From IMG/VR virus record IMGVR_UViG_3300025466_001444: a stretch of DNA of 64,000 nucleotides. One strand, written 5' to 3'. How positions within the stretch are numbered: the stretch's first letter is position 1; each line of letters opens with the position of its first letter. A model generated the notes under the pieces. It had not been told where the DNA came from. It was given only the letters and a program-made list of their open reading frames with translations, and made no database searches. Origin of the DNA: a virus (taxonomy: Duplodnaviria; Heunggongvirae; Uroviricota; Caudoviricetes). A program made the position numbers and the translations under genes. This document shows positions 11,908 through 20,027 of this stretch, piece by piece.

Positions 11908-13290
11908 TTATTTACCAAGAAGACCCTTGATCTTTTGCTTTTTTTCCTCATCAAGTCCACCGAACTTTGATTTGGAGAAAACCGGTTTGTCATCCGCAAT
12001 ATCGTCCTGCGCTGACTGTTCAACGTCATACAATCTCATTTTAGCTCTGTCAACACCCACAACAAACTTTTTATGGATTGTAGGATCATTGTAGCGGTTC
12101 TTGAGTTGCTTGATCATAATTTGATTAAGAGATTCAAGCTGTTCAGAACTTATTAAAGCAAACATGAAATCTGCAGTTGCGGGCAAACCAAATGATTCAG
12201 AAGTATCAGTTAGCTCAACATCTGAGTTGCCATACCCAGAACGTGTTGTTTGAGTTGCAGAAACAATAGGAACAGCAAACTCTACAGCCAATCCACGCAA
12301 TTCTTCTGCAATAGATTTAATCAAGGTATAAGAATTTACATTTGACCCTGACTTGATACGTGAAGAACAACAGATATTCAGATAATCGATATAGATAATA
12401 TCTGGAATAAAGTTCCGTTTGATACGAAGCTCATTGATCAAATGTCTGAAATGTGCTGCACCAGCCGATGCTGTTGGGTATTCTTTGATAATCAACTTTC
12501 CAGTAGTTTTTTCCTTAACACGATTGATTTTCTTATCATACACATCCTTGGGTAGAAGAGCCAATTCGTCAATGGTGACGTTGAGTAGATTGGCATCAAT
12601 TCGTTCAGCAATCTTCTCTTCTGCCATTTCCATGGTAATATAAAGAACATTCTTTCCTTGCGCTAAATTATTTGTGGCGCAATGACACATGAACAATGAT
12701 TTGCCAACGCCAGTACCAGCAAGAGCAATATTTAAGCTCTTTTTGATAAGACCTCCCTTGGTAATTTTATTCATATAATCTAGATCAAATGGAATACGCT
12801 CCTTTTTCTCATGATAAAATTCAAAACGATCATCTGAATTATCTAGATAATCATGACCAATAGACACATCAAACGAAACTCCCAAAGCTTCTGAAAGAAG
12901 ATTGGGAATTGCGCCTTTACTTTGTGACTCTTTCTTATCATCAAGAATTTTAATGGATGCCATGATAGCATTATAGATTGCTTTATCTTGACAAAACTTT
13001 TCAGTTGAATCAAGAAGCCATTCTATTTTAGTATCTTCTTTCGTCATATCATCAATCAAAGATTTTGCATCCTTGAAGATGTTCTCAGAAATTCCATCCT
13101 TGTTATCCAATTCAAGATAAAGCACTTCCTTTGTAGGAAGTGCATTATACTTTTCTACATATTCCTTTATTAAATTATAGATAGTTTTGTCTGAAAGTGT
13201 ATGAAAATAATCATCCTTAATAAAAGGAAGAACCTTACGTGAGTAAGGTTCATTGTAGATCAGATGAGATAGAATGGTTTTTTCAATCAT
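11908..13290 (-). CDS. 41: DnaB-like replicative helicase (T4 gp41-like)
   Basis: Walker A LAGTGVGKS in a RecA-like C-terminal domain. 460 aa. Synteny with uvsX. Confidence 0.85.
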   Translation of the reverse strand: MIEKTILSHLIYNEPYSRKVLPFIKDDYFHTLSDKTIYNLIKEYVEKYNALPTKEVLYLELDNKDGISENIFKDAKSLIDDMTKEDTKIEWLLDSTEKFCQDKAIYNAIMASIKILDDKKESQSKGAIPNLLSEALGVSFDVSIGHDYLDNSDDRFEFYHEKKERIPFDLDYMNKITKGGLIKKSLNIALAGTGVGKSLFMCHCATNNLAQGKNVLYITMEMAEEKIAERIDANLLNVTIDELALLPKDVYDKKINRVKEKTTGKLIIKEYPTASAGAAHFRHLINELRIKRNFIPDIIYIDYLNICCSSRIKSGSNVNSYTLIKSIAEELRGLAVEFAVPIVSATQTTRSGYGNSDVELTDTSESFGLPATADFMFALISSEQLESLNQIMIKQLKNRYNDPTIHKKFVVGVDRAKMRLYDVEQSAQDDIADDKPVFSKSKFGGLDEEKKQKIKGLLGK

Positions 13291-13551
13291 TTACTTCTTT
13301 CTTTTAAAGATACTGTCGAATGATGCGATGATAATTGCAAATAAAATAGCAACAACAGATGCAAACAAAATAACACCAAAGAACAATGCAAAGCCAACCC
13401 ACAAAGGGGAAAGAACCCAAATCCAATCCCAATCAATATATCCAGTAAGCTTAAGCCCAATAAACAAGATTGTCAACAGACCGGGGAATCCAACCCCAGT
13501 GTAATTAACTTCTATTTTCTCACTCATCCTCATCACCTTCATCATCATCAT
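13291..13551 (-). CDS. small membrane protein (gp40-position)
   Basis: Two predicted transmembrane segments. Lies between the gp41 and uvsX genes. Confidence 0.5.
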   Translation of the reverse strand: MMMMKVMRMSEKIEVNYTGVGFPGLLTILFIGLKLTGYIDWDWIWVLSPLWVGFALFFGVILFASVVAILFAIIIASFDSIFKRKK

Positions 13552-14608
13552 GAACCAAAGAACCAGAAACAGTAGTGTACTTATTCTTCAACCAATCTGC
13601 AAAGTCAGTTTCATCAAACAGCTTCTTCCAGAAAGAACTATTGTTTTCGATATCAGCCATTCGCATCTTGTCACCAACAAATTCACCAGTGCTGCTATCG
13701 AACCTTTGATACCATCCCATAGAAGGCTTGACAACATACTTGCCTTCTTCTGCAAGGTCAACAAGACCAGACCACTTATTGATGCCACCTTCGTATGTGA
13801 CGTTAATAGGAATCTTGCTCTTTTCCTTTACATAACGTGACTTCTCAACATTGATGATGAAGCTATAACCATCAATTTCTTTTGTCTTGGTATCCTTATC
13901 TTGCTGACGACCAAGAATCCAGATTGTATCAGCAGAATAATAGATACCAGTACCACCAGAAACAACATCCTTGCTATACATTTCAAGAGTCTTGTAGGTA
14001 TGGTTGACTGCAATCAAAGGAATATCCTTGAGTGTCAAATGAGGTGTAATCATACGGAACAAAGACTTCAATGCCTTTGCACGAGACATATCAGCTACAT
14101 TCTTTCCATCCAAAGCATCATCAACTTCCTTACGTGAAGCAAGATTACCAACAGAGTCAATAACAATAACAACCTTATCATCACGAGTGATAGTGCTATC
14201 AGACTTGCTTTCTTCCTTCACAGTCAAATGACTCATCAAGTCAACCTTCAACTGTTCAACATCTGTGATAGGGATATGAATAACACGATCCATATCAATA
14301 TCGAAAGATTTAAAATAACCTTCTGGCGTACCAAATTCAGAATCATAAAAAAGCATCACAGCTTCTGGATACTTCTTCATATAGGCAGATGCCATAAGCA
14401 AAGAGAATGCAGACTTGAAATGCTTTGAAGGACCAGCAAGAACAGTAAGCCCCGGTGTCAATCCACCATCAATATTTCCAGACAATGCAACATTCAACAT
14501 AGGAATGCTTGTTGGAATCATATCCTTCTTGCCATAAATTTTGCTCTCAGAGAGAACAGAGACTTGCTTGATTTTTGAATTCTTCATAATGCGATCTACT
14601 AGCGACAT
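13520..14608 (-). CDS. uvsX: UvsX RecA-like recombinase
   Basis: GLTVLAGPSKHFKS Walker A and RecA-fold motifs. 362 aa with an acidic C-terminus. Confidence 0.85.
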   Translation of the reverse strand: MSLVDRIMKNSKIKQVSVLSESKIYGKKDMIPTSIPMLNVALSGNIDGGLTPGLTVLAGPSKHFKSAFSLLMASAYMKKYPEAVMLFYDSEFGTPEGYFKSFDIDMDRVIHIPITDVEQLKVDLMSHLTVKEESKSDSTITRDDKVVIVIDSVGNLASRKEVDDALDGKNVADMSRAKALKSLFRMITPHLTLKDIPLIAVNHTYKTLEMYSKDVVSGGTGIYYSADTIWILGRQQDKDTKTKEIDGYSFIINVEKSRYVKEKSKIPINVTYEGGINKWSGLVDLAEEGKYVVKPSMGWYQRFDSSTGEFVGDKMRMADIENNSSFWKKLFDETDFADWLKNKYTTVSGSLVHDDDEGDEDE

Positions 14609-14617
14609 ATTATTTCC

Positions 14618-14866
14618 TTAACTTTCTAGAATTGAATTAAGTTTTTTAATAAACTCATTGATTTTATCCTCACGATCAGGCCAATTGATTGTTGGCTTGT
14701 CTGGATTCTTTTTTAAATTATTTAAGAGTGGCATGATCATGCTATGCATTTCACTACACTTGCTCTTCCATTTCATAACATCTGACGCCTTTGCAGTCAA
14801 GTCTGCTTGAAACTTTTTAGAACTTTCTTCTGGACTATCAGAAAATGTAAAACCAAAATCATCCAT
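14618..14866 (-). CDS. hypothetical protein (82 aa)
   Basis: ORF between uvsX and the polymerase. Confidence 0.45.
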   Translation of the reverse strand: MDDFGFTFSDSPEESSKKFQADLTAKASDVMKWKSKCSEMHSMIMPLLNNLKKNPDKPTINWPDREDKINEFIKKLNSILES

Positions 14867-14871
14867 TTATT

Positions 14872-15981
14872 TTACTCCCAAAATTGATCTAATGTATTTC
14901 GTTTTTCAACTTGCCAACCAATCGCATCTAAAATGGTTTTAATAGGCTCAACGAATGACTTAGAATACTGTAGCTCATAATCAATGTACTTGTCAAGGTC
15001 CAATTGACGAGGAAGATTATGATGACATGCAATAACATTTTCTTTGATTGGATTTGGCATTTTCATATAACAGAACTTGATCTTATCACCATCTTGGATA
15101 AAGGGATAACGATTCCCCAGATTTTCATTCCTTAGAAGATTATTATATACAAGTGCTGCACGAACATGCATTGGTGTCCCTGACTTATATATATCTTGCT
15201 TGTTGGACCACTTAGAAAGATTCTTACAACCACGAGGAAATGCAACTTCTTCAAACGAAAGCTTCTTGAATTCCTGACGAAAATCAGCAATAAATTTAAT
15301 CATATCATCTTCTGTCTTGGACATGATTACGCCCATAGCTTTTTTAATATTATCTCGACAAGCTTGTGGTGTGGATGAACGAACAGCTTCGATGCCCATC
15401 ATTTTCAACTTAGGTTCGCTGTATTGAACACCTTCGTTATTCCATACATTCAAGATATAACGTTTCTTTGCAGTCCAAATTCCCTTACTAGCAATTGATT
15501 CACGCTTCATCTGCATCTTCTGTGCATACGCATTCATCATTACTGCTAGTTCTTGATAACATTTGTCAATGAATGGCTGAACCTTTTGTTCGCAGAAAGC
15601 ATCAACAGCACCAACAATAAATGGCGCATCGTCAGTGTTGAGAAGCTTTACCATCTCAGCCATCTTCACATAGATAGAATCAGTATCAGATGCAATTACA
15701 TAATCAACTTCCTTTGTCTTGCATACCTTATTCATAAACTCATTCATCTTCTTTTCAATCCACTTGATTGAAAGCTGACCAGAAAGAGTGATCGAAGTAG
15801 CAAGATTGTCGTCATACCAACGAAAATATTCGTTAGACAACGCACCATATGCTGAGTTGAGTTGAATTTTCTTTGCAAGTTGAAGATTGTGGGATTGAGA
15901 TATTTTTTTAATTAAATTTTCTCTATGCTCTATCAACTCCTGATCCGTCATCTTTTCTATGTCTAGCTTTTGCAGCATCAC
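14872..15981 (-). CDS. 43: DNA polymerase (family B, gp43-like) C-terminal fragment (palm motif B/C, thumb)
   Basis: KIQLNSAYGALSN (motif B, KxxxNSxYG) and a YVIASDTDS-like motif C. The N-terminus overlaps the HNH ORF. Confidence 0.85.
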   Translation of the reverse strand: MMLQKLDIEKMTDQELIEHRENLIKKISQSHNLQLAKKIQLNSAYGALSNEYFRWYDDNLATSITLSGQLSIKWIEKKMNEFMNKVCKTKEVDYVIASDTDSIYVKMAEMVKLLNTDDAPFIVGAVDAFCEQKVQPFIDKCYQELAVMMNAYAQKMQMKRESIASKGIWTAKKRYILNVWNNEGVQYSEPKLKMMGIEAVRSSTPQACRDNIKKAMGVIMSKTEDDMIKFIADFRQEFKKLSFEEVAFPRGCKNLSKWSNKQDIYKSGTPMHVRAALVYNNLLRNENLGNRYPFIQDGDKIKFCYMKMPNPIKENVIACHHNLPRQLDLDKYIDYELQYSKSFVEPIKTILDAIGWQVEKRNTLDQFWE

Positions 15982-16432
15982 TCAACTTCCTTTTCCATTC
16001 ATCAGTAAATACTCTACCCTTACGTCCAACTTTAGCATTATGTTCTGGACTATGCAACTTTCCTTTCAATGCAGAAGAAATATTATTAATATGATCTTCT
16101 GATAATTTTTTCCCTGTCTGTGCTTTTCTATTATTTTCTACATGAGTAATAGAATGTTTTTTTCCTTTTTTAGCATCACTCATTTTTTTTCTGGTTTCTG
16201 AACTTCTAACTTTTCCAGTATTTGCTTTTCTAACTGCTTCACGTTGAACTTCTTCACTTGGTATTCTTCCACTCAATCCTTTCCAAGCAATTTCATCCTG
16301 CCAACGACCATATTTTTCAAACAATAATTTATGTGCTTCTGCATGTTGTTCAACAGTCAAATATTGAATATTTGAAGGATCATTTGTTCCTCCAACGTGT
16401 TTTGGTATTATATGATGTTTGTGTAATAACAT
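15923..16432 (-). CDS. HNH homing endonuclease with NUMOD-like repeats, inserted inside the polymerase gene
   Basis: HHIIPKHVGGTNDPSNIQYLTVEQHAEAH is an HNH motif. Lys-rich repeats of the form GKK..S..H. Confidence 0.75.
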   Translation of the reverse strand: MLLHKHHIIPKHVGGTNDPSNIQYLTVEQHAEAHKLLFEKYGRWQDEIAWKGLSGRIPSEEVQREAVRKANTGKVRSSETRKKMSDAKKGKKHSITHVENNRKAQTGKKLSEDHINNISSALKGKLHSPEHNAKVGRKGRVFTDEWKRKLSDAAKARHRKDDGSGVDRA

Positions 16433-16462
16433 AAAGGGCTCCCATTGTTAGCTACCTGCATG

Positions 16463-17941
16463 TTATTTATATAACATTTTCCTCTTTTTCATTTCAGATT
16501 CAATTATTTCCAAATCTTTTTTGGCTTCAATCATGCGCTCCTTAAATACGACACGATCATTGTACATCTTCTCCATCAGAGTAGGAAGGAAGCCTTGCTT
16601 ATCCTTACGATAGATAGCACCATTAGCAGCAATAGCATGTTCACAATTATGAGACCATTCACTATTAATCAATTCATCAACAGATGAGAATTTAGGCAAT
16701 ATAGCCACAAAAGTTTCAGGACTTACATTATATTGCATAATAAGATGAGGATATAGAGAATTCAAATCGAATGATACAACCCAATCATGCATTCCAAGAA
16801 TTGGGTCTTTTACATATGCGCCAACAATCTGTTCATCCTTATGCGTCTTCTTATTCTGAGGAATAACAATGCGCTGATTAATAAGATAGTTGTGAATGAT
16901 TACATCCCAGAGACGCACAGAAGTAAACGCATCAGAGAAGTTGACCTTCGCATCATACGCAATAGCAAATACTTGTTCGATCAGTTTCAGCTTGTCATCA
17001 AGGCGACCAACAAGATCAACGTCCTTGATATTGTACTCAATGAAAAGCTGATAATTCTTCTTATACAAATCGAACAGAGATTCATATTCAGAATAATCAA
17101 GTTTGCGTTCGCCAAGTTCAATGTGGGCGATGTGATCCAGACGATAGGATTCCTGATTAGTGAATGTGAACTTCCTGTAGAGTTGTAGATAATCAAGTAC
17201 TGTGATGCCAACAGGAATATACGATTTCTGTTCAACACCATATTTCTCTACAGAACGTTCCTCAATGATGCCCCAAGGTGAAATCTTCTTAGCCATTTCA
17301 TTTCCAAGAAGCCTACGGACACGATTGATGATATACGGAATATCAAAGTACTCCACATTCCAACCAGTCACAACATCAGGCTGAAACCACTTCATACGCC
17401 ATAGGTCAAGGAATTTGATGAGCAAAGATTCTTCATCTTTACACTTGAAGTACTTCACATTTTCATTGGTGTTTACGAACTCCCCACACCCAAGAACAAC
17501 GTAGATGTCATCCTTCTTCATTGTGATGGCAGTTATTTCTTTTTCAGCAGTTTCAATATCGGGAAACCCTTCATCAGCTGCAACCTCAATATCGATATTA
17601 ACGATAGAAATTTGCTTAGGGTCATAATCAATTTCGCCGGGATAATAATCATTGATGAATGGGTAGACGAACTGTGTCATCCCATAGATATCAAAGTTGG
17701 AAACATCGCCATATTGCTTCACATAATCACGAGCATCCTTTGGAGAATCAAAGTCGATACGCTTGACAGGATCGCCCTTTAGGTTCCTGAATTCAATCTC
17801 ATCCACATTGTTTGGATTATTGTTGTGGACAAAGAGGTACGGCTTGCAAGGCAGCTTTTCGAATACACGTTTACCACCATCATAGCCACGAAGCAGAATG
17901 GTATCGAAGTGAAGATGTGCATGGGTGTAAAATTTGCTCAT
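16463..17941 (-). CDS. 43: DNA polymerase (family B, gp43-like) N-terminal fragment (N-terminal, exonuclease and motif A region)
   Basis: Exo motifs (FDIE-like IDIEV) and an SFDLNSLYPH-like motif A (VVSFDLNSLYPHLI). The ORF ends in a stop before motif B. Confidence 0.85.
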   Translation of the reverse strand: MSKFYTHAHLHFDTILLRGYDGGKRVFEKLPCKPYLFVHNNNPNNVDEIEFRNLKGDPVKRIDFDSPKDARDYVKQYGDVSNFDIYGMTQFVYPFINDYYPGEIDYDPKQISIVNIDIEVAADEGFPDIETAEKEITAITMKKDDIYVVLGCGEFVNTNENVKYFKCKDEESLLIKFLDLWRMKWFQPDVVTGWNVEYFDIPYIINRVRRLLGNEMAKKISPWGIIEERSVEKYGVEQKSYIPVGITVLDYLQLYRKFTFTNQESYRLDHIAHIELGERKLDYSEYESLFDLYKKNYQLFIEYNIKDVDLVGRLDDKLKLIEQVFAIAYDAKVNFSDAFTSVRLWDVIIHNYLINQRIVIPQNKKTHKDEQIVGAYVKDPILGMHDWVVSFDLNSLYPHLIMQYNVSPETFVAILPKFSSVDELINSEWSHNCEHAIAANGAIYRKDKQGFLPTLMEKMYNDRVVFKERMIEAKKDLEIIESEMKKRKMLYK

Positions 17942-17977
17942 ACAAATACCTTATACCAAAGTGAGCCAAGATGCAAG

Positions 17978-18012
17978 CAAAAAATAGGGGGCAATGACCC
18001 CCTATTAAGTTT
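17978..18012. terminator. intrinsic terminator hairpin (tagggggcaatgaccccctat) flanked by A/T runs
   Basis: G/C stem with an A-run upstream and a T-rich run downstream, so it can act bidirectionally. Confidence 0.55.
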
Positions 18013-18220
18013 ATTTCCTGCAATTTTGTATTGCTAAGTTCAAGATATCACCACGGCAAATGCCGATATCAGAAAGTTCTCTATCAGACAATTTTGATAG
18101 TTCCTTGATGATATTGTAATACCTTGTAGTGGCTGAAAATTCTTTCTGCCAGTAGTCCATCCATTCATGTATCATTTTTTTATTCTGCGATAAATTGTTT
18201 CGTTGACTTTTTTGTGGCAA
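18011..18220 (-). CDS. hypothetical protein (69 aa)
   Basis: ORF. Confidence 0.4.
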   Translation of the reverse strand: MPQKSQRNNLSQNKKMIHEWMDYWQKEFSATTRYYNIIKELSKLSDRELSDIGICRGDILNLAIQNCRK

Positions 18221-18704
18221 CTTCTGTTGTCACATCGTCGGTGATATCAATCTTTTTAGGTTTCTTACTTTCAGGAATAATATGTTCAAGCCAAATCTTG
18301 AGAATACCATTTACCATGGAAGCATTGTTTACAACGACATTATCATTAAGAGCAAAAGTACGAGTAAAAGCACGATCTGCAATTCCCTTATGAAGATATT
18401 GTACATCAACACCATCAGAAGTAAGGGTGTCCAAAGTTGTTTGGCCCTTGACGACAAGCTTGTTTTCTTCAAGAGTCAATTCAATATCTTGCTTACCAAA
18501 TCCAGCAACAGCAAGTTCGACAACATATACATTTTCGTCTGTCTTCTTTAGGTTAAATGGGGGATACCCATTGCCAGCTGTCTTCTGAATGTGTTCGTAA
18601 GTTTCATTCATCTTCTGAGCAATCTTGTCTGCTCCAACAAAAAACTTGTCAAACTTGGCAAGATCAGAAAATGTATGATCGAATCTATAAGGTGTATTAG
18701 TCAT
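18180..18704 (-). CDS. small heat shock protein (Hsp20/alpha-crystallin family)
   Basis: GYPPFNL...YVVELAVAGFGKQDIELT...GILKIWLE is the alpha-crystallin domain pattern. Confidence 0.75.
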   Translation of the reverse strand: MTNTPYRFDHTFSDLAKFDKFFVGADKIAQKMNETYEHIQKTAGNGYPPFNLKKTDENVYVVELAVAGFGKQDIELTLEENKLVVKGQTTLDTLTSDGVDVQYLHKGIADRAFTRTFALNDNVVVNNASMVNGILKIWLEHIIPESKKPKKIDITDDVTTEVATKKSTKQFIAE

Positions 18705-18815
18705 CTCATCGTTCTCCTATGTTAGCGAGATTCATAAATATGCCGTCCAACTATGCAACGACATAAATATATTTAGGTTGGATTTATCAATTTTCAAGAG
18801 TGAGGAATAAAAAAA

Positions 18816-19277
18816 ATGGCTGACGAATCAAAAGCACCAAGTGAAGATTTTGTTACTTCGAAATGGAGACCCTTTATGGGTTGGACATATATGGCTATAT
18901 GTTCCTTTGATTTTATTTTTGGACCAATTATGAATGTAGTATTTTCCGTCATAACAAAAACACAATTAGTCCCATGGAAGTCACTCACACTTGATAATGG
19001 TGGTTTATTTCATCTTTCAATGGGTGCAGTTCTAGGTGTAGCTGCATATGGAAGAACACAAGAAAAAATTTCAAAGATTGATAATGGAATTCCATTACCG
19101 GGAACAGGAATGGCTTCATCTCCAATAGTATCTGAAACTACGATAACTGATACTTCAGTCAATGTAACTCCAATTCCATCTGCTCCCACACCAGTTTCCA
19201 CAGTAGTTGCTACTCCAGCACCTCAACCAGTTTCTACCCCAGTTGCTGTTTCATCAACACGTAAAAGATTTATTTAA
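18816..19277 (+). CDS. membrane protein with Pro/Thr/Val-rich C-terminal tail
   Basis: Two transmembrane segments, then PIPSAPTPVSTVVATPAPQPVSTPVAV. RBS GAGGAA upstream. A terminator follows. Confidence 0.55.
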   Translation: MADESKAPSEDFVTSKWRPFMGWTYMAICSFDFIFGPIMNVVFSVITKTQLVPWKSLTLDNGGLFHLSMGAVLGVAAYGRTQEKISKIDNGIPLPGTGMASSPIVSETTITDTSVNVTPIPSAPTPVSTVVATPAPQPVSTPVAVSSTRKRFI

Positions 19278-19283
19278 AATAAA

Positions 19284-19312
19284 TTGGGGCGGTTTATGCC
19301 GCCCCTTTTATA
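19284..19312. terminator. intrinsic terminator ggggcggtttatgccgcccc + T-run
   Basis: Perfect 7-bp G/C stem followed by ttttat. Confidence 0.65.
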
Positions 19313-19560
19313 TTGAAGTGTGAAAATACATTATCTTTATCAAAAGACTGAACGTCACGTACCCAATTCAGTGCATCTTTCTCAGTTGCAAAATGCAACC
19401 TATCTCTAATGGTTAGACCGTTTAAAGTTCCTTTGTTGAGTAACTTATCGAATTCAACAACATATCCGAAAGTCTTTTCTTTTAGGTCAGCCATTTTGCA
19501 GTCTCCATGTTTACGTAGTGTATTTATCAAAAAAGATGGTAGGGGATGTAGGACTCTCAC
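19294..19560 (-). CDS. hypothetical protein (88 aa)
   Basis: ORF. Confidence 0.4.
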   Translation of the reverse strand: MRVLHPLPSFLINTLRKHGDCKMADLKEKTFGYVVEFDKLLNKGTLNGLTIRDRLHFATEKDALNWVRDVQSFDKDNVFSHFNIKGAA

Positions 19561-19796
19561 CTACTTTAGCGCCGTTATGAGCGGCGAGCGTCGTTTACTT
19601 TCGCCTATCCCCCAAACTCTTTCTTTTTCCTCCACAACCTATTTAGAACGGAACAATAAAGTCTTCTCCAACTGAAATCAATCTCTCTAAATTATTTATT
19701 TCAGTCTTCAATCTTTCTACGTCTTCATCATTCCATTCTGCTTCACTCAACTCTTTTCGTTTGGCTTTGAGTACATCGTATGTACGGGGAAAAGGT

Positions 19797-20027
19797 TCAT
19801 TCATCTTCTGGCTCCGTATACTGAATCAAAGTTGCATTGCGTATTCTGTATCCACGATCATGCCAATCTTGAATCTTTCTTGAGATATCTGGGTCGTCAT
19901 ATGTGCTTTGACAATGACGAACCCATGCTTCCATAGCAGTAAGACCAAAGGTTTGATAGCTCATTCCCCACCATGCAGCTTTGCTTACTGGAGGTTTGAT
20001 CACAAACCCATAGGTCTCTTTTTTCAT
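19797..20027 (-). CDS. hypothetical protein (76 aa)
   Basis: ORF. Confidence 0.45.
   Translation of the reverse strand: MKKETYGFVIKPPVSKAAWWGMSYQTFGLTAMEAWVRHCQSTYDDPDISRKIQDWHDRGYRIRNATLIQYTEPEDE

Follow-up and report, generated by a model that had tools for sequence, protein, structure and literature searches.

The window analysed here, meaning the whole stretch of 64,000 nucleotides (nt) held as IMG/VR virus record IMGVR_UViG_3300025466_001444 (Caudoviricetes), carries the gene for a T4-type gp43 DNA polymerase in two pieces, polN and polC, with a homing endonuclease gene of the HNH-NUMOD3 kind between them. We think it very probable that the locus is best explained as a split polymerase combined with a mobile HNH-NUMOD3 cassette. 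The replicative family B polymerase would be made as two polypeptides, polN with 492 and polC with 368 amino acids (aa), which would reassemble without a covalent link, and the endonuclease gene would be part of the mobile cassette whose copying into an intact allele splits it.

The split polymerase and the endonuclease gene

Three consecutive open reading frames (ORFs) make up the locus, all of them on the minus strand (16463-17941, 492 aa; 15923-16432, 169 aa; 14872-15981, 369 aa). This is the layout given by the original prediction, made from the letters of the DNA, of a family B polymerase divided into two ORFs by an HNH gene. The N fragment of 492 aa, said to hold the exonuclease and motif A and to end in a stop, was confirmed both as an ORF and by Pfam matches to DNA_pol_B_exo1 (E 3e-21) and to positions 23-145 of the 453-position DNA_pol_B profile. 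In polC the DNA_pol_B match resumes at profile position 146, so that no polymerase segment is missing between the halves and the two pieces are exactly complementary. A profile built from the concatenated halves and 46 homologues matched residues 1-901 of RB69 gp43 (E 6e-187), and T4 gp43 as well. Assignment to the family B gp43 polymerases was based on ExoI-III, motif A (DxxSLYP), motif B (KxxxNSxYG), motif C (DTDS) and collinearity with RB69 and T4 gp43; the catalytic residues of ExoI-III and of motifs A, B and C are all found at invariant alignment columns (D117/E119, N195/D200, Y303/D307, D392-P398, K529..G537, D590-S593). Judged by these sequence characters, the concatenated halves are a family B, gp43-type replicative DNA polymerase.

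The middle ORF, predicted to be a 169-aa HNH/NUMOD endonuclease gene on the same strand, did match NUMOD3 (E 2e-11; 44 bits, cutoff 20.4) and HNH (22.2 bits, just above the gathering score of 21.4), and corresponds to PHROG 655, ‘homing endonuclease’. A search of PDB sequences with the protein was uninformative, its one weak match (E 0.19) being the HNH domain of a group II intron maturase. As far as can be read from the DNA, the gene is freestanding; it lies outside any intron or intein and is equipped with a start codon, a ribosome-binding site and a promoter motif of its own.

The position of the break was derived from an alignment of the window with T4, RB69, the intact relative L003 (related contigs are designated by L numbers) and 43A plus 43B exon 1 of Aeromonas phage 25. 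polN ends one alignment column from the end of phage 25 43A, equivalent to T4 gp43 ~508/509 and RB69 gp43 ~511/512, which answers the call for an alignment to these proteins and bears out the proposed analogy with 43A/43B of the Aeromonas T4-like phages. The split had also been placed between palm motifs A and B. It does lie between these motifs, but since motif B sits on a fingers helix, the break is in the loop at the tip of the fingers domain and not within the palm. In an AlphaFold2 (AF2) model of the two halves fused, with a mean predicted local distance difference test score (pLDDT) of 86, residues 451-494 and 504-539 form long helices, and the break falls between them in the only segment with a pLDDT below 50. 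Natural ‘bicistronic fingertip’ polymerases broken at this position are those of phages 133, 44RR, 31, 25 and 65 (PMC3061061; PMC2988022). That a chain break can be tolerated here is supported by an engineered Pfu polymerase, which was split at the fingertip, expressed from a bicistronic message and found to be as active as the wild type (Hansen et al., 2011, PMC3061061). The natural products 43A and 43B purify together and show polymerase activity according to Petrov et al. (2010), as cited in PMC2988022.

Codon comparisons indicate that both halves are under strong purifying selection. Against L003 the ratio of non-synonymous to synonymous divergence (dN/dS) is 0.055 for polN and 0.066 for polC, values which, given a recent acquisition, mostly reflect the time before the insertion. 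For L036 and L051, which share their split by descent (synonymous divergence, dS, ~0.7), the ratios are 0.068 and 0.058, and for L074 and L076 they are ~0.11-0.12. The low values in pairs that are split by descent show that split polymerases persist under selection.

The inserted cassette and its distribution

Window and L003 were compared by codon-threaded pairwise alignment, L004 being left out owing to an insertion of its own. Over most of the gene the two are 85-95% identical in nucleotide sequence, the cassette excepted: identity collapses after MIEAKK (window 16508) and resumes around HNLQLAKK (~15880). Where the intact allele has ~16 loop codons, the window has instead a tail of 14 residues, a TAA stop, a spacer of 30 nt, the HNH gene and a head of 29 residues. 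The GC content of the HNH region is 0.32-0.33, compared with ~0.38-0.40 in most of the flanking polymerase sequence, and its AT skew is strong. The split L020 and the ~95% identical intact L026 gave the same cassette boundaries; their flanks show raised divergence over ~100 nt upstream (84%) and ~50 nt downstream (70%), as would be expected for co-conversion during repair.

Homologous tails and heads were found in all split forms. The span from the MY[NDE][DE]R motif to QLAKK, the anchors of the fingers hairpin, measures 30-37 aa in 53 intact polymerases and, summed over both pieces, 37-57+ aa in 26 split ones; by count from aligned sequences it is 59 aa in the window and 31 aa in L003. The extra sequence at both broken ends, predicted to be helical, probably extends the antiparallel helical hairpin of the fingers and may help to hold the subunits together. 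Between window and L017, tail and head are ~62% similar and the polymerase body 58%, by hand alignment of a stretch too short to decide whether they differ.

The C fragment had been predicted as 369 aa starting with its own Met. The ORF has this length but opens with GTG (15981); the next codon is an ATG (15978) preceded by AAGGAAG, which makes a likely start and gives 368 aa. This ATG falls inside the last 56 nt of the HNH ORF, and the first 56 nt of the head overlap HNH in another frame.

The seven closest relatives in a collection of 5.8 billion proteins (76-91% identity) are single intact polymerases of 831-843 aa, and a length corresponding to the N fragment (484-528 aa) occurs in 9 of the top 120 matches. 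polN is 86-91% identical to intact relatives and polC 90% identical to L003. Relatives without the HNH gene thus have an intact polymerase, the outcome that the original prediction had named as a sign of homing. Because the closest relatives are intact, split and HNH gene arrived together in the window's lineage, and from these comparisons the cassette looks recently acquired. A megablast search of 14600-18200 against cultured phages gave no match; the best cultured protein matches were to cyanomyoviruses, at ~49% identity.

Among 65 analysable viral contigs, 52 have an intact polymerase and 13 are split at the same junction. A neighbour-joining tree built on the polymerase body has the split forms scattered and polyphyletic, each next to an intact sister (split/intact: window/L003, L020/L026-27, L012/L008, L005/L010, L017/L024). 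The order N-HNH-C with a homologous HNH gene recurs in at least four other independent metagenomic contigs and hence did not come about by chance. HNH homologues with 70-75% aa identity stand at the same site between polymerase halves only 47-65% identical to those of the window (L083/L084, L170/L171, L172), and the HNH protein of L020 is 55% identical. Between window and L171 the non-synonymous divergence is 0.16 for HNH and 0.21 for polN; dN/dS of HNH is 0.06-0.13. Presence or absence among close relatives, combined with a conservation above that of an essential replication gene, is what homing of an endonuclease gene is expected to leave. Homologues in the cultured cyanophages S-H34, S-SRM01 and S-SKS1 lie in structural-gene regions and not at the polymerase. 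An HNH match in phage 25 was considered as its gene 43 endonuclease but rejected, since it is another gene, situated between genes 5.1 and 4; in that phage gene 43 has its endonuclease in a separate 267-aa ORF, described as seg-like GIY-YIG (PMC2988022, PMC2677866).

The space between tail and head is filled by several kinds of occupant. Besides HNH these are GIY-YIG (L012, L017), degraded GIY-YIG (L005), a 2OG-Fe(II) oxygenase (L034, L036, L051), a 248-aa ORF (L076) or nothing (L053, L068, L073-75). The fingertip split site hence appears to be a general insertion slot, or recurrent hotspot, in environmental T4-like phages. The oxygenase-like ORF has 170 aa (L034:6434-6946, L036:2947-3459, L051:6437-6949), belongs to PHROG 61 and shows a dN/dS of 0.069. 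The 248-aa ORF (L076:3676-4422) belongs to PHROG 29277, of unknown function, and its N-terminal DTDGTL motif was read as HAD-like.

Two related contigs and one patch of the window itself depart from this picture. L004, whose polymerase is 87% identical, is split at a second site by a 182-aa HNH gene of another family (L004:6297-6868), located after motif A (...MQYAISPE); the resulting pieces have 432 aa (N') and 446 aa (C'), each with extra terminal sequence, and the fingertip is intact. In the window, polN residues 405-433 just after motif A (16643-16729, minus strand) are only 41-50% nucleotide-identical to L003. This patch coincides with the insertion site of L004; it may have been left behind by an endonuclease that visited the gene earlier, or may just be a loop of high variability. 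The otherwise intact L018 lacks ~13 codons after motif B and changes frame (L018:2300-2330; …YGALGNQYF, then shift), which could be an assembly error or a damaged gene.

The region in front of the HNH gene contains candidate control elements. The T4-type late-promoter motif TATAAATA occurs 18 times in the window, compared with 7.7 copies expected (none of 100 shuffles reached 18), 17 of them lying on the minus strand, the coding strand that carries nearly all long ORFs; this pattern is consistent with T4-type late promoters throughout the window. TATAAATA or CTAAATA-like motifs stand at the same place in L020, L171 and L172. A minimum free energy fold pairs AAUAACAUG, which overlaps the 3' half of the late-promoter motif and extends slightly beyond it, with UAUGUUAUU, which holds the HNH AUG. 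Equivalent hairpins over the AUG were found in L171, L084, L172 and L020, that of L020 being built from different sequence. Control by a promoter combined with such a hairpin has been described for I-TevI, mobE and segB (PMC2988022). The HNH gene is probably expressed only late in infection. The hairpin would bury the HNH AUG in early and middle transcripts that read through, while transcripts starting from TATAAATA would be without its 5' arm.

Taken together, the N-tail, stop, late promoter with hairpin, HNH gene and overlapping C-head with its own ribosome-binding site would form one mobile cassette. In a co-infected cell the endonuclease would cleave the intact polymerase allele close to the fingertip site, and recombinational repair from a cassette-bearing genome would copy the cassette in, whereby the intact polymerase becomes a split one. 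The sequence and its comparisons establish how the genes are built, their homology, where the break lies, the lack of an intron or intein, the occurrence among relatives and the purifying selection; we infer the assembly and activity of the two subunits, the activity and target of the endonuclease and its late-only expression. The coordinates of the elements are listed in Table 1.

Table 1. Elements of the split polymerase locus, in window positions
Feature	Position	Strand	Length and content	Evidence or remark
polN (43A-like cistron)	16463..17941	-	492 aa + TAA stop; N-terminal domain, 3'-5' exonuclease domain, palm motif A, first fingers helix	ORF, Pfam, relatives, dN/dS
HNH-NUMOD3 freestanding homing endonuclease gene	15923..16432	-	169 aa	Pfam, PHROG 655, homologues at same site
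polC (43B-like cistron)	14872..15978	-	368 aa from ATG; second fingers helix with motif B, palm motif C, thumb	ORF, Pfam, relatives, dN/dS
N-tail extension	16466..16507	-	polN residues 479-492, DLEIIESEMKKRKMLYK region	not in intact relatives; predicted to lengthen first fingers helix
C-head extension	15892..15978	-	polC residues 1-29, MLQKLDIEKMTDQELIEHRENLIKKISQS	not in intact relatives
T4-type late-promoter motif	16464..16471	-	TATAAATA	overlaps polN stop; 32 nt upstream of HNH ATG
RNA hairpin (predicted)	16425..16467	-		3' arm holds HNH start codon; 5' arm overlaps late-promoter motif
Whole inserted cassette	15880..16507	-	tail, stop, intergenic region, HNH, head	right-hand boundary approximate

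In the vicinity of the locus, an 82-aa ORF without a PHROG match (14618-14866, minus strand) lies between polC and uvsX, in the same position as a small hypothetical gene of cyanophage S-B64. The succession Hsp20 ... pol, small ORF, UvsX is likewise similar to that phage. A strong GC-rich hairpin followed by a T-run (AATAGGGGGTCATTGCCCCCTATT TTTTGC; 17983-18006, minus strand) precedes the polN start by ~40 nt; it probably serves as a terminator separating polN from a small ORF upstream and could affect polN expression too.

Alternative explanations

Several observations weigh against the preferred explanation. The window is one assembly only, a single metagenome-type sequence of 64 kb. In related HNH cassettes the conserved polC start is an ATG seven codons further on, which is ATA in the window, so that the polC start given here is a likely one only. 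No clear co-conversion tract was seen beyond the cassette between window and L003. The stability of the hairpin over the HNH start (z = -1.2 relative to shuffled sequences) is not significant, its support being conservation in five sequences only. The AF2 model is that of an artificial N+C fusion, has a pLDDT of 57-78 at the tip and was made from an alignment without split homologues, and it cannot show binding between tail and head.

That the window is a single assembled sequence would also agree with the split being an assembly or sequencing artefact, or the polymerase a recently inactivated pseudogene, and the ratios against L003, which mostly predate the insertion, would hardly speak against the latter. 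However, no frameshift artefact was found at the split; the inserted sequence contains a whole gene of 169 aa, which is under purifying selection and comes with a promoter motif and a ribosome-binding site; the same architecture occurs in independent metagenomes; and lineages that inherited the split by descent have a dN/dS of ~0.06 in both halves. Additionally, tblastn with both halves revealed no second polB within the 64-kb window. An artefact or a dead gene is hence very improbable. Much the same applies to the idea that the HNH ORF belongs to a self-splicing group I intron, after whose removal a single polymerase mRNA would yield a single polypeptide. Phage polymerase genes (SPO1/SP82) do have group I introns that encode HNH endonucleases, and 43B of phage 25 contains a group I intron. 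Yet an Rfam scan of 13000-20000 found no intron model at E<=1, RF00028 included, while the phage 25 intron used as a control was found with 64 bits (E 4e-15). The non-coding sequence between polN and polC amounts to only 30 nt and leaves no room for a ribozyme core. Tail and head, moreover, are kept as protein and persist where stop and start codons overlap with nothing between them (L073-L075). We see very little prospect of an intron here.

A related possibility is a split intein, a ‘fractured gene’ whose products are ligated by protein trans-splicing. Such genes, with a freestanding endonuclease gene between the split-intein halves, are known from marine metagenomes and include polymerase genes (Dassa et al., 2009, PMC2677866). 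None of the three ORFs, however, has a Hint or intein match in Pfam. Compared with L003, polN ends in just 14 additional residues and polC begins with 29, by far not enough for the halves of an intein, and AF2 predicts both stretches as helical. The original prediction had noted that the polymerase, unlike terL, lacks an intein signature; with this result trans-splicing retains virtually no likelihood. More can be said for a functional split in which HNH is now an immobile passenger, inactive or domesticated, on a scaffold that predates it. One and the same tail/head scaffold holds HNH, GIY-YIG, non-endonuclease cargo or nothing and must therefore predate each of its occupants, which agrees with the ‘spacer first’ view of Petrov and Edgell; the order ‘intercistronic spacer first, endonuclease later’ has been proposed for phages 44RR and 25 and is raised for phage 25 by Edgell et al. 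(PMC2988022). In the window's lineage, though, the intact state of the nearest relatives means that split and HNH came together. The low dN/dS of HNH and its divergence, smaller than that of its host genes, fit recent transfers by an active enzyme, and the catalytic motif HHIIPK..GG..N..H..H is kept in all copies. A passenger role is thus unlikely, and a split polymerase with a mobile cassette remains the explanation we prefer.

Stop-codon inserts in sister cassettes and comparison with known systems

In the window motif B is uninterrupted. The GIY-YIG cassettes of related contigs differ in this respect: polC carries there, after motif B (YGAL or YGAL(G/S)), an insert of 4-11 nt that starts with a stop codon. 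It was present in all three GIY-YIG cassettes of an unbiased sample and in 18 of 18 distinct sequences overall. Loci with the insert are L005, L012, L017/L273, L053/L278, L068/L252 and L249-L281 (e.g. L275:7589-7640, L254, L260). Five contigs in which no endonuclease gene was detected, all of them split, have it as well; it is absent from three scorable HNH cassettes and from three oxygenase cassettes. It occupies the codon position at which an intron interrupts 43B of phage 25. Of the 15 insert types, 13 have a ‘take-off’ codon directly ahead of the stop that is matched by an identical or synonymous ‘landing’ codon at the end of the insert (examples are CTT TAG CTA; CTT TAG CTC; GGT TA GGT; GGC TAG CTA GGC; CTG TAGCGAAT CTG; GGT TGA GGA), and reading on from the second matched codon restores N.YFRW exactly.

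From their sequence, the inserts look like natural programmed ribosome hopping with the layout of experimental ‘stop-hops’. A 2016 review of recoding states that no natural stop-hops are known (Atkins et al., 2016, PMC5009743), and the literature searched contained no report of natural stop-hop inserts of this kind. In cultured phages the GIY-YIG endonuclease of these cassettes had only SegD/SegH-like matches at ~35%, and no cultured stop-hop system was found. A probable role of the insert, suggested by the mobA/gene 60 bypass and by seg43(25) with its intron, is to shield motif B DNA of the cassette against the endonuclease that the cassette encodes.

The feature of the window is a phage 25 architecture of known kind, with a different endonuclease class, no intron and a different phage group. 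The 43A/43B split has been known since Petrov et al. (2006) and, as far as cited in PMC2988022, is treated by Petrov, Ratnayaka and Karam (2010, J Mol Biol 395:457). The split gp43 of Aeromonas phages 25, 44RR, 31 and 65 and of Acinetobacter phage 133 is the same enzyme, broken within one column and encoded by two cistrons on one strand, and in phage 25 a freestanding endonuclease gene likewise lies between 43A and 43B. There, however, it is the seg-like GIY-YIG gene seg43(25) and not HNH-NUMOD3, and the C cistron has a group I intron, which that of the window lacks. The window furthermore represents an uncultured T4-like phage from a group other than the Aeromonas and Acinetobacter cases, and, unlike in the 43A/43B cases, close intact relatives show the acquisition directly.

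Other phage genes offer partial parallels. I-HmuI and I-HmuII of SPO1 and SP82 are HNH genes that interrupt a phage DNA polymerase gene, but they lie in introns, and splicing of the mRNA leads to a single polypeptide, whereas no intron is detectable here. In nrdA of Aeromonas phage Aeh1 a freestanding HNH endonuclease gene, mobE, splits an essential gene into two co-oriented cistrons, an arrangement reportedly studied by Friedrich and co-workers in 2007 and by Crona and co-workers in 2011. The Aeh1 NrdA products reassemble, helped by sequence that arrived with the insertion, and control is by a late promoter and an RNA hairpin (PMC2677866; PMC2988022). The host gene in Aeh1 is, in contrast, that of a ribonucleotide reductase, and its assembly was shown experimentally, whereas for the window we only infer it. 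The mobA cassette of T4 gene 39/60 similarly consists of an upstream C-terminal extension, an endonuclease gene and an overlapping downstream N-terminal extension; it was inserted independently in several lineages and involves a 50-nt translational bypass (Bonocora et al., 2011; bioRxiv 10.1101/2022.08.31.505936). Since the window is without a bypass element, the bypass analogy fits the sister GIY-YIG cassettes only. The engineered Pfu split is again a family B polymerase broken near the fingers tip, but it is artificial and archaeal and has neither a mobile element nor added helical extensions.

A fingertip-split gp43 with an intervening endonuclease gene has been known since 2006-2010, and the split as such adds little. 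Value is added by an intact relative, 85-95% identical, that delimits the cassette to within a few codons, and by evidence for a joint spread of split state and endonuclease gene into polymerase lineages that are unrelated. A wider proposal, to which we give an even chance, is that gp43 is subject to portable gene-splitting cassettes made of a zipper scaffold with interchangeable occupants, and that GIY-YIG cassettes gain self-immunity through a stop-codon insert that the ribosome hops. Homing would then carry the scaffold over and in doing so convert an intact polymerase at once into a functional enzyme of two subunits. If this is true, the inserts of the GIY-YIG cassettes are the first natural ‘stop-hops’; although outside the window, they are the most valuable lead, as they could represent natural, efficient, short-range ribosome hopping. 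For the polymerase itself, the lengthening of the fingertip helices in every split form provides a testable idea of how an essential enzyme survives being cut.

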